From IMG/VR virus record IMGVR_UViG_2778261504_000020: DNA of 4,776 nt, one strand, 5' to 3'. The number at the start of each line of letters is the position of its first letter. Within the stretch, counting starts at the first letter, position 1. Source of the DNA: a virus. Taxonomy: Duplodnaviria; Heunggongvirae; Uroviricota; Caudoviricetes. Shown here in pieces: positions 3,001 through 4,776 of the stretch. Position numbers: made by a program.

Positions 3001-4776
3001 TTAATGTAACGGTGTTTTTATTAAGTGTGTTTGCGTGGTGTTTTATGTTTTTTATAATTTTTTATTTTATTAAATTTAAAAGCATTAGTAATGGCTATTC
3101 TATATAGCAATATAAGAACTGTTACAAAAAAAGGGGGGCAATTACAGGTAGTTATGGATGATGAGTGAAACAGATATTGGAGAACCGGGGAATGAATGAT
3201 GTCTGAGTCTTATATATCAGAACTCCTTCGCTGTCGCTGGGGGCTCCTGTGCTTATGTCGTTTCCCCGATTCGGTTTTGAACGATTACCGAATGTTGAAG
3301 AATTATGCCAAAATATAGAAAGGATTTACTGCATGAATACCCAATATTTACAGTATGTTCGTGAGCAACTTATGGCAGCTACTGCTGACTTGAACGGAGC
3401 AACGAAAGGCCAGCTCGAAGCCTGGCAGGAGCATGCACAATTTGATACTGGTACATACAAACGAAAGAAGCCGCGCATTCTGGATGTGGTAACTGGCAAG
3501 ATGATTACGCTGGATAATACGCCGACTTCCGGTAAGCAGTCGTACGCAAAAGGTTCATCCATTGCTTTGGTCAGCCCGGTTGAATTCTCAACCTCTTCAT
3601 GGCGCCGCGCGGTTTTGTCTCTCGATGAACATCAGAAAGCATGGTTGCTTTGGTGTTACAGCGAAAGCGTTCGATGGGGGCATCAGGTCACCATAACGCA
3701 ATGGGCATGGAGCGAGTTTAAAGATTTGTTAAGTAACAGAAAAATTGCAGGTAAGACACTGGATCGCCTGAAGACGTTAATCTGGCTGGCTGCACAGGAT
3801 GTGAAGAGCGAACTTGCAGGGCGTGAGGCCTATGAATACCAGACACTGGCATCATTGGTGGGAGTGACAACAAAAAACTGGTCCGAGACATTTACTGAAC
3901 GCTGGGTTGCAATGAAGCACATTTTTCTACAGCTTGATAGTGATGCTTTATTGCTTGTGACGAGAACACGTTCAAAACAAAAGGCAGCATTTTTACAGCA
4001 AAATATTGCAAAACTGGATTAAAAGCCATATACTTCATGCAAATTTGGTATGTTGTAAAAAATGTATAAACCCGCTGCCGAGTGGGTTTTTTTTATGCCC
4101 TGAGTTGTACTTGTACGGTAAACATGCTGGCTGCTATGTAATAGAGTTTTTTTAGCCTGTAACCTCTTGACGGCATTGAATTGCTTTTGTTATGAGTTGT
4201 AAGCCAATGTTATCATCTTGTATTGGGGTGGTTATGAAGGATGGTGCGCTGCTCAGGAGTTCTTCACTTTTTATTGCCTACATGGGATGCCTTGGATGGG
4301 GGAGTGCTTATTTCTATGGATGGGGTACTTCTTTTTACTACGGCTTCCCATGGTGGATTGTAGGTGCAGGTGTTGATGATGTTGCCAGAAGTTTATTTTT
4401 TGCAGTTATCGTCATTGCTATATTTCTTATCGGTTGGGGTATTGGTGTTGTATTCTTTTTCGCAGTGAAAAGAAAACATTCTATGCAAGAGCTAAATGTA
4501 TTTCGCCTTTATTTTGCTGTGGAATTATTGTTTGTGCCGGCAATTATTGAGTTTTCTATATTGAGACAGAAGATTCAGGTACCTCTTTTGCTACTGTCAG
4601 CAGCGATTGCGCTGGCGGTTACAATTTCGATAAGATCTTATGGGCGATTTTTATCGGTATCATGCTTCTATGATAAGCCATTTATAAAAAAACATTTTTT
4701 TGAGATTGTGATGATTGCTTTTGTGGCATATTTTTGGCTTTTTTCATTTCTGACAGGATATTACAAACCACAGTTT

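Follow-up and report, generated by a model that had tools for sequence, protein, structure and literature searches.

Assignment of the Q gene of a lambdoid virus sequence to the Q82 antiterminator family and the phage 434 allele

Which kind of late antiterminator occupies the Q position of a lambdoid genome, where does its translation start, and does the DNA beside it hold the elements on which it would be expected to act? We asked these questions of a 4,776-nucleotide (nt) stretch of viral DNA (Caudoviricetes; IMG/VR record IMGVR_UViG_2778261504_000020; the window), in which a plus-strand open reading frame (ORF) of 257 codons runs from GTG 3249 to a stop codon at 4020-4022. An earlier reading made from the sequence alone had proposed, by position and size, that this ORF encodes a Q-type antiterminator and that it belongs to a family different from that of a lambda-type Q stub further upstream. 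Our analysis leads us to conclude, with high confidence, that the ORF contains the gene of a functional Q82-family late antiterminator that is translated as 229 amino acids from ATG 3333 and is of the allele carried by phage 434, the function being assigned from its relatives and from the elements next to it:

3333-4022, plus strand: Q antiterminator coding sequence (CDS), 229 amino acids and a stop codon; Q82 family, PF06323.

The ORF belongs to the Q82 family

Three families of Q proteins have been described, Q-lambda (PF03589), Q21 (PF06530), and Q82, which corresponds to PF06323 (PMC9388147; PMC7171158). The 257-codon ORF matches PF06323 (Phage_antiter_Q) with 306 bits (E 1.7e-91; cutoff, 25) over profile positions 1 to 216 of 220, and it also matches PHROG 304, "anti-termination protein Q-like," with an E value of 3e-108, so by both collections the ORF is far above chance expectation. 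All 37 close homologues match PF06323 (37/37), and none of the 37 family members tested has a match to PF03589 or PF06530 at an E value of 10 or less. Comparison with the three Q families, which the sequence-only reading had recommended, is therefore positive for PF06323 alone, and both the proposal of a Q-type antiterminator and its separation from the family of the upstream stub proved correct. NCBIfam gave no match to the Q protein, BLASTP of the full protein against lambda Q found no similarity (E 3.9), and PDB sequences, searched both with the protein alone and with a profile of 66 family sequences, returned no antiterminator, no lambda Q, and no Q82 structure, the matches being at chance level only, plus a TetR helix-turn-helix (HTH) at an E value of 1.8 with the family profile.

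The Q protein is 100% identical to CPT_434_67 of phage 434, which is annotated as "transcriptional activator/anti-terminator, Q82-like," and the identity extends to the DNA, since window positions 3100 to 4240, covering Q, the promoter, the pause element, the terminator, and the beginning of the gene that follows, are 100% identical to the phage 434 genome (OL657226). The report of that genome describes the stretch as the Q late activator and the late promoter region, in a plaque-forming phage that was propagated and sequenced from virions (PMC9119081). RefSeq holds the same 229-residue protein as WP_001097238.1, "bacteriophage antitermination protein Q," and the Q protein of prophage CP-933K of Escherichia coli O157:H7, also 100% identical to that of the window, was named "putative antiterminator Q protein of prophage CP-933K" in the EDL933 annotation (AAG55112.1). 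Q together with its promoter region (3333 to 4100) is present at an identity of at least 99% in 618 of 5,426 complete E. coli genomes, O157:H7 included, and the whole-window arrangement is present in 189 genomes. Because of its identity with the phage 434 gene, the existing RefSeq and EDL933 annotations, and this abundance in E. coli genomes, the gene is an already known, annotated, and common allele and is nothing new in itself. The strength of late and cargo gene expression after induction is set by the Q allele together with the promoter, pause, and terminator elements linked to it, and for this reason correct naming of the allele is useful for typing E. coli prophages, those of O157:H7 among them.

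Translation most likely starts at ATG 3333

The sequence-only reading had given the protein 257 residues and called its start ambiguous. The three in-frame codons that it named, GTG 3249, ATG 3255, and ATG 3333, do exist, but the likely product is the 229-residue protein that begins at ATG 3333, which we consider the most likely start from the following sequence features:

3249-3332, plus strand: upstream in-frame extension (GTG 3249, ATG 3255), probably not part of the translated Q protein.
3321-3324, plus strand: candidate Shine-Dalgarno sequence AGGA, 8 nt 5' of ATG 3333; marked as the ribosome-binding site (RBS) in the phage 434 record.

In the 257-residue form, the PHROG match begins only at residue 29 and the Pfam match only at residue 32, and full-length homologues among the matches listed are 229 to 230 residues long. 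No family match or homologue was found for the 28-residue extension, which overlaps the neighboring small gene ylcG (3199-3318) in a different frame. In two relatives that also have ylcG next to Q, PhiR47_2 (L003) and RothD (L006), no in-frame start lies 5' of the conserved ATG that opens MNT..., and purine-rich motifs resembling the AGGA Shine-Dalgarno sequence are found in relatives as well. The 229-residue form is the one annotated by RefSeq and in the curated phage 434 record, and the 257-residue form is used only by the 2001 EDL933 annotation (AAG55112.1). All of these observations run counter to a true product of 257 residues (from GTG 3249) or 255 residues (from ATG 3255) with an N-terminal extension overlapping ylcG. 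Such a product would be in keeping with the frame being open from 3249, with a G-rich tract (GGGGG, about 3239-3243) 5' of GTG 3249, and with the sequence of AAG55112.1 being recorded from 672 contigs; even so, we regard it as very improbable, and the 257-residue reading was rejected on the point at which the profiles start, the lengths of the homologues, and the RBS at ATG 3333. The correct CDS is that of 3333-4022, and it encodes the Q82-type antiterminator already known from phage 434 and CP-933K-like prophages.

A candidate late promoter, pause element, and terminator follow Q

Immediately downstream, we found a set of elements arranged as in a Q82-type late control region:

4006-4034, plus strand: candidate late promoter pR', with -35 TTGCAA at 4006-4011, a 17-nt spacer, and -10 TATACT at 4029-4034; putative function.
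4041, plus strand: predicted transcription start (+1), the first A of an A-run (AAA).
4046-4054, plus strand: putative extended -10-like sigma70-dependent pause element, TGgTATGTT, at +6 to +14; predicted pause near +25 (T 4065).
4068-4094, plus strand: intrinsic terminator tR', with a 9-bp stem, a 4-nt loop, and T8, at +28 to +54.

The candidate pR' overlaps the Q stop codon, and its -35 and -10 hexamers are conserved in five relatives with 47 to 89% Q identity. By analogy, a Q-binding element is expected in the spacer between these hexamers. The landmarks published for pR' of phage 82 are GCC at +15 to +17, U at +25, and an extended -10-like element, with a sigma70-dependent pause (PMC5001585); when the same +1 is used, the relatives show GCC at +15 to +17, T at +25, and an extended -10-like element just upstream. 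The TG and TAT of the pause element are invariant in all six aligned loci (6/6), in DNA that is noncoding, and the promoter and pause layout of the Q82 type is thus present at the level of sequence. A scan and the fold energy (-13.3 to -15.3 kcal/mol; z about -3.6 to -4.1) both support the terminator that had earlier been noticed at 4068-4094, and a nearby intrinsic terminator stands at the tR' place in 6/6 of the aligned loci. Homology to Q alleles of about 89% stops at about 4051-4055, so that Q, pR', and the pause element move together as one module.

Several points weigh against our view of a working Q82-type antiterminator with its own late promoter. The promoter scan taken alone is at chance, with 4 sites found versus 4.0 expected in shuffles. 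At +15 to +17 (4055-4057) the window has GTA instead of the GCC seen in phage 82 and in 4/5 relatives, a trinucleotide that is a feature of 82 pR' and not of the protein family; single or triple changes of GCC to A shorten the 82 pause 2- to 5-fold (PMC5001585), so pausing may be weaker in the window because of this replacement. Furthermore, tR' starts 3 nt past the predicted pause site, a distance shorter by about 20 nt than in most E. coli relatives and than in the relatives whose pR' fits the published 82 landmarks; Cronobacter phage phiES15 has the same short pause-to-terminator spacing. Phage 82 Q (82Q) is likened to the window Q by family and by published landmarks, not by protein identity, and phage 82 is not among the tblastn matches of Q in the phage collection. 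Finally, the antitermination activity of the window Q is one that we infer by analogy.

A second promoter-like site lies just 5' of the membrane-protein gene that follows Q (TTGACG at 4167; TTGTTA-18-TATCAT at 4187-4216) and is not conserved in relatives. If this site were the target, the protein would be a promoter-binding activator of 4167-4216 and not a terminator-bypassing factor, a proposal that would suit the location of the site and the hedged "transcriptional activator/anti-terminator" name in the phage 434 record. We give this proposal hardly any weight: the set of elements that is conserved beside Q is that of pR', pause, and terminator, and biochemical work on the Q protein of phage 82 has demonstrated antitermination, with loading of the protein at a sigma70-dependent pause (PMC4914094). 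The 4167-4216 site was rejected as a Q target on account of its lack of conservation in relatives.

Proposed action of Q at pR'

For the Q82-type antiterminator that we favor, a mechanism can be drawn from work on 82Q (PMC4914094; PMC12360218). Host RNA polymerase containing sigma70 would initiate constitutively at pR', with +1 at about 4041, and retained sigma70 would then rebind TGgTATGTT (+6 to +14) and cause a pause near +25. Without Q, transcription would terminate at the hairpin and T8 of 4068-4094 and leave a leader RNA of about 52 to 55 nt. Early transcription would make Q, whose C-terminal HTH (about residues 169 to 195) would bind the Q-binding element in the promoter spacer, after which Q would transfer to the paused polymerase with the help of NusA and would travel with it, making it resistant to tR' and later terminators. 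The late genes turned on in this way would be that of the membrane protein (4207 on) and, beyond the window, those for DUF3927/TciB, an esterase, lysis, and morphogenesis/structural proteins. Q-binding-element-dependent, NusA-stimulated antitermination is established for 82Q (PMC4914094). What we computed for the window is family membership, identity with phage 434, and the sequence elements with their conservation; pausing, binding of the Q-binding element, NusA dependence, and antitermination come from the published work on phage 82 Q and are attributed to the window Q from there.

Phage 82 Q, the experimentally studied member of the Q82 type, is in the same Pfam family as the window Q, and its pR' resembles that of the window in layout: the promoter is followed by an extended -10-like element (about +6 to +14), a T at +25, and, close by, an intrinsic terminator. 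Lambda Q (PF03589; PDB 4MO1 and 7UBN) has the same job and the same genomic slot as the window Q, and both lambda Q and 82Q need NusA (PMC12360218). However, lambda Q has a zinc ribbon with two CxxC pairs that are invariant in its family, whereas the window Q has no zinc ribbon and only a single Cys (C108), which is not conserved in the Q82 family. The lambda Q N terminus is disordered over 60 residues, while the N-terminal 80 residues of the window Q are partly folded in the predicted model, and 82Q is thought to bind the Q-binding element as a dimer, in contrast to lambda Q, which binds as a monomer.

The candidate pR' is also crossed by a perfect CII-type site, TTGCN6TTGC (3998-4011, minus strand), which the phage 434 record labels paQ. 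The site falls within the 3' end of Q and shares bases with the late-promoter -35; E. coli relatives retain both TTGC halves but differ in the N6. It is not significant by itself, at least one such site being present in 72 of 200 shuffles. CII could drive antisense transcription into Q from this site and occlude pR'.

An Rfam search of the pR' leader found no family at the gathering score, and STnc240 gave a subthreshold match (28 versus 55 bits; 4029-4098, plus strand). Subthreshold matches to isrJ and isrK were seen in the leaders of two relatives (L003, 2206-2285, and L004, 2207-2279), and STnc240, isrJ, and isrK are all Salmonella prophage small RNA (sRNA) families. In other prophages, late-promoter leaders are known regulatory sRNAs, namely, StxS and IsrK (PMC7547250), and the predicted 52- to 55-nt leader RNA of the window could likewise be a regulatory sRNA. 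In phage 434 (L001), a near-threshold match to STnc100 (41.4 versus 47 bits) lies at 8988-9192, in the late-operon cargo region 3' of the stretch that it shares with the window.

The Q82 and lambda-Q families may share a helix-turn-helix body

The window Q had earlier been called unrelated to the lambda-type protein. Ordinary sequence searches bear this out, but comparisons of profiles and of predicted folds hint at a very distant relationship to the body of lambda Q. A first AlphaFold run, which used a shallow alignment (72 to 100% identity), gave a poor model (pLDDT 58.5) and was superseded by a second run with 66 diverse family representatives (19 to 62% identity), for which the pLDDT was 89.7 and the pTM was 0.78. 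In the second model, residues 82 to 229 are at a pLDDT of 93 to 98, and there is an HTH-like helix pair at 169-176/180-228; the TetR HTH, the only weak PDB sequence match of the family profile, aligns to this segment. When this fold was compared by Foldseek with 350,542 chains, the three best matches were two AlpA chains and lambda Q (7ubn_Q; probability, 0.95), with E values of 0.19 to 0.34, which are not significant. Across the predicted-fold comparisons, Pseudomonas AlpA (7XYA/7XYB) ranked third and then second and Q21 (6JNX) ranked 44th; the Q21 family gave no close fold match, just as it had given no PF06530 match at an E value of 10 or less.

In profile-profile comparisons of the Q82 alignment with lambda Q, the E value went from 0.11 to 0.0014 and then to 0.00097 as the lambda side was deepened, with the same 24 to 25 columns aligned each time. 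The final hhalign match has an E value of about 1e-3, with a probability of only 22%, over 24 columns, and it scores 30.8, whereas 60 controls with shuffled columns score 12.9 ± 2.5 (maximum, 20.2) and reversed controls about 11. The match is a gapless motif of 24 to 28 residues around the HTH recognition helix, and it aligns the best-conserved residues of both families (Q82 with lambda Q: W183 with W176, P189 with P182, W191 with Y184, L/M194 with L187, D202 with E195, and A205 with A198). The matching segment of lambda Q comprises the turn and the recognition helix of its HTH, within a four-helix "body," and it includes residues 182 to 197, which contact NusA (NusA S1).

Taking the short motif and the predicted structure together, we would put at about even the chance that the Q82 and lambda-Q families have a homologous HTH body. 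This lead is a family-level one that is not peculiar to the window, and others may have noticed it already. The literature describes three Q families without obvious sequence similarity, presents the Q82 and lambda-Q families as alike in neither sequence nor structure, and treats the structure and mechanism of Q82 as open (PMC9388147; PMC12360218; PMC7171158), and the lead bears on the open questions of three-dimensional homology among the Q families and of a nozzle mechanism for Q82 (PMC9388147). If the kinship were true, the allele swap in the window would have replaced a lambda-type Q by a very distant cousin without the zinc-ribbon arm, and Q82-type proteins would contact DNA, and perhaps NusA, through a surface equivalent to that of lambda Q. 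This possible remote homology of the two bodies is the sole wider interest of the locus.

Q lies in a segment that probably replaced a lambda-type allele

To the left, Q is preceded by the genes of a lambdoid nin region (NinX, NinF, a small ORF, YbcO, RusA, and NinH, with Pfam support), and the order after ninH is a lambda-Q stub, lpxR on the reverse strand, an AT-rich spacer, ylcG, and Q. The position assigned to Q by the sequence-only reading, between the nin genes and a promoter and terminator, was right as to the terminator downstream, but the stub, lpxR, and ylcG intervene after ninH. The neighboring features are as follows:

1683-1772, plus strand: N-terminal stub of a lambda-type Q, 29 codons and a stop codon; remnant of a displaced Q allele.
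1898-2857, minus strand: lpxR (lipid A deacylase), cargo gene; PF09982, 137 bits; RefSeq and phage 434 annotations.
3199-3318, plus strand: ylcG-family small gene, directly 5' of Q; RefSeq WP_077249715.1.
4207-4776, plus strand: membrane-protein gene, first in the predicted Q-controlled late operon and cut by the window end; phrog_1521, E 8e-111.

The series nin/rusA/ylcG, Q, cargo, and holin/endolysin/spanin is shared by phage 434, by prophages of E. coli, and by five more phages, and it places Q where a Q82-family gene is found, closing the early-right operon ahead of the lysis and late genes. The ylcG-family gene, which has no Pfam match, is the usual left neighbor of Q82-type Q, and ylcG and Q are adjacent in L003, L006, and L009.

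The stub is identical to the lambda Q N terminus in 22 of 25 amino acids, the first 20 residues being the same, and at the DNA level it is homologous to lambda up to about 1754; elsewhere (RefSeq and the phage 434 record) it is annotated as a pseudogene or fragment. This indicates that a segment consisting of lpxR, ylcG, Q, and pR' took the place of most of a lambda-type Q, of which the 29-codon stub remained, and lpxR looks like cargo that was brought in with the replacement segment. The event would be an old one, since phage 434 and the O157:H7 prophages, CP-933K included, have the stub, lpxR, ylcG, and Q in the same arrangement.

These recombination scars, the lambda-Q stub and the lpxR insertion, raise the question of whether Q is intact but part of a defective-prophage relic in its host, with no useful expression or with action only in trans on the late promoters of other prophages. 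The same module is indeed present in an O157:H7 prophage region in which replication and tail-fiber genes are frameshifted and truncated. Against this, the coding sequence and the cis elements are identical to those of the viable phage 434, the closest full-window matches carry complete lysis cassettes downstream, and the window itself contains no frameshift or premature stop. We consider a relic unlikely and retain the interpretation of a functional late antiterminator.

Some further differences from phage 434 and local features were seen in this region. The nin region of phage 434 has NinE, NinF, NinG, and NinI, unlike the set found in the window, and bases 1 to 77 of the window lie outside the listed best E. 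coli and phage matches, which begin at base 78 or later, so the left end of the window comes from a variant of the ninE/ninX region other than those of these records. Just 3' of the stub (1773-1800 region), the window has one copy more of the 8-bp ATTTTATT than phage 434. The ATG of the stub overlaps the ninH stop codon (ATGA), and coupled translation of the stub could for this reason still take place. A strong hairpin stands at 1815-1851, between the stub and the 3' end of lpxR (-19.1 kcal/mol on the minus strand, with a z value of -6.4, and -16.4 kcal/mol on the plus strand), followed on the plus strand by a U-rich tract; it is probably a bidirectional terminator, through which early rightward transcription would have to read to reach Q.

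On the other side of Q, the product of 4207-4776 is a multipass protein that is listed as a hypothetical protein in RefSeq (WP_001302581.1) and as a "putative membrane protein" in the phage 434 record and that has no Pfam family. Its gene occupies the slot that carries stx in Stx phages.
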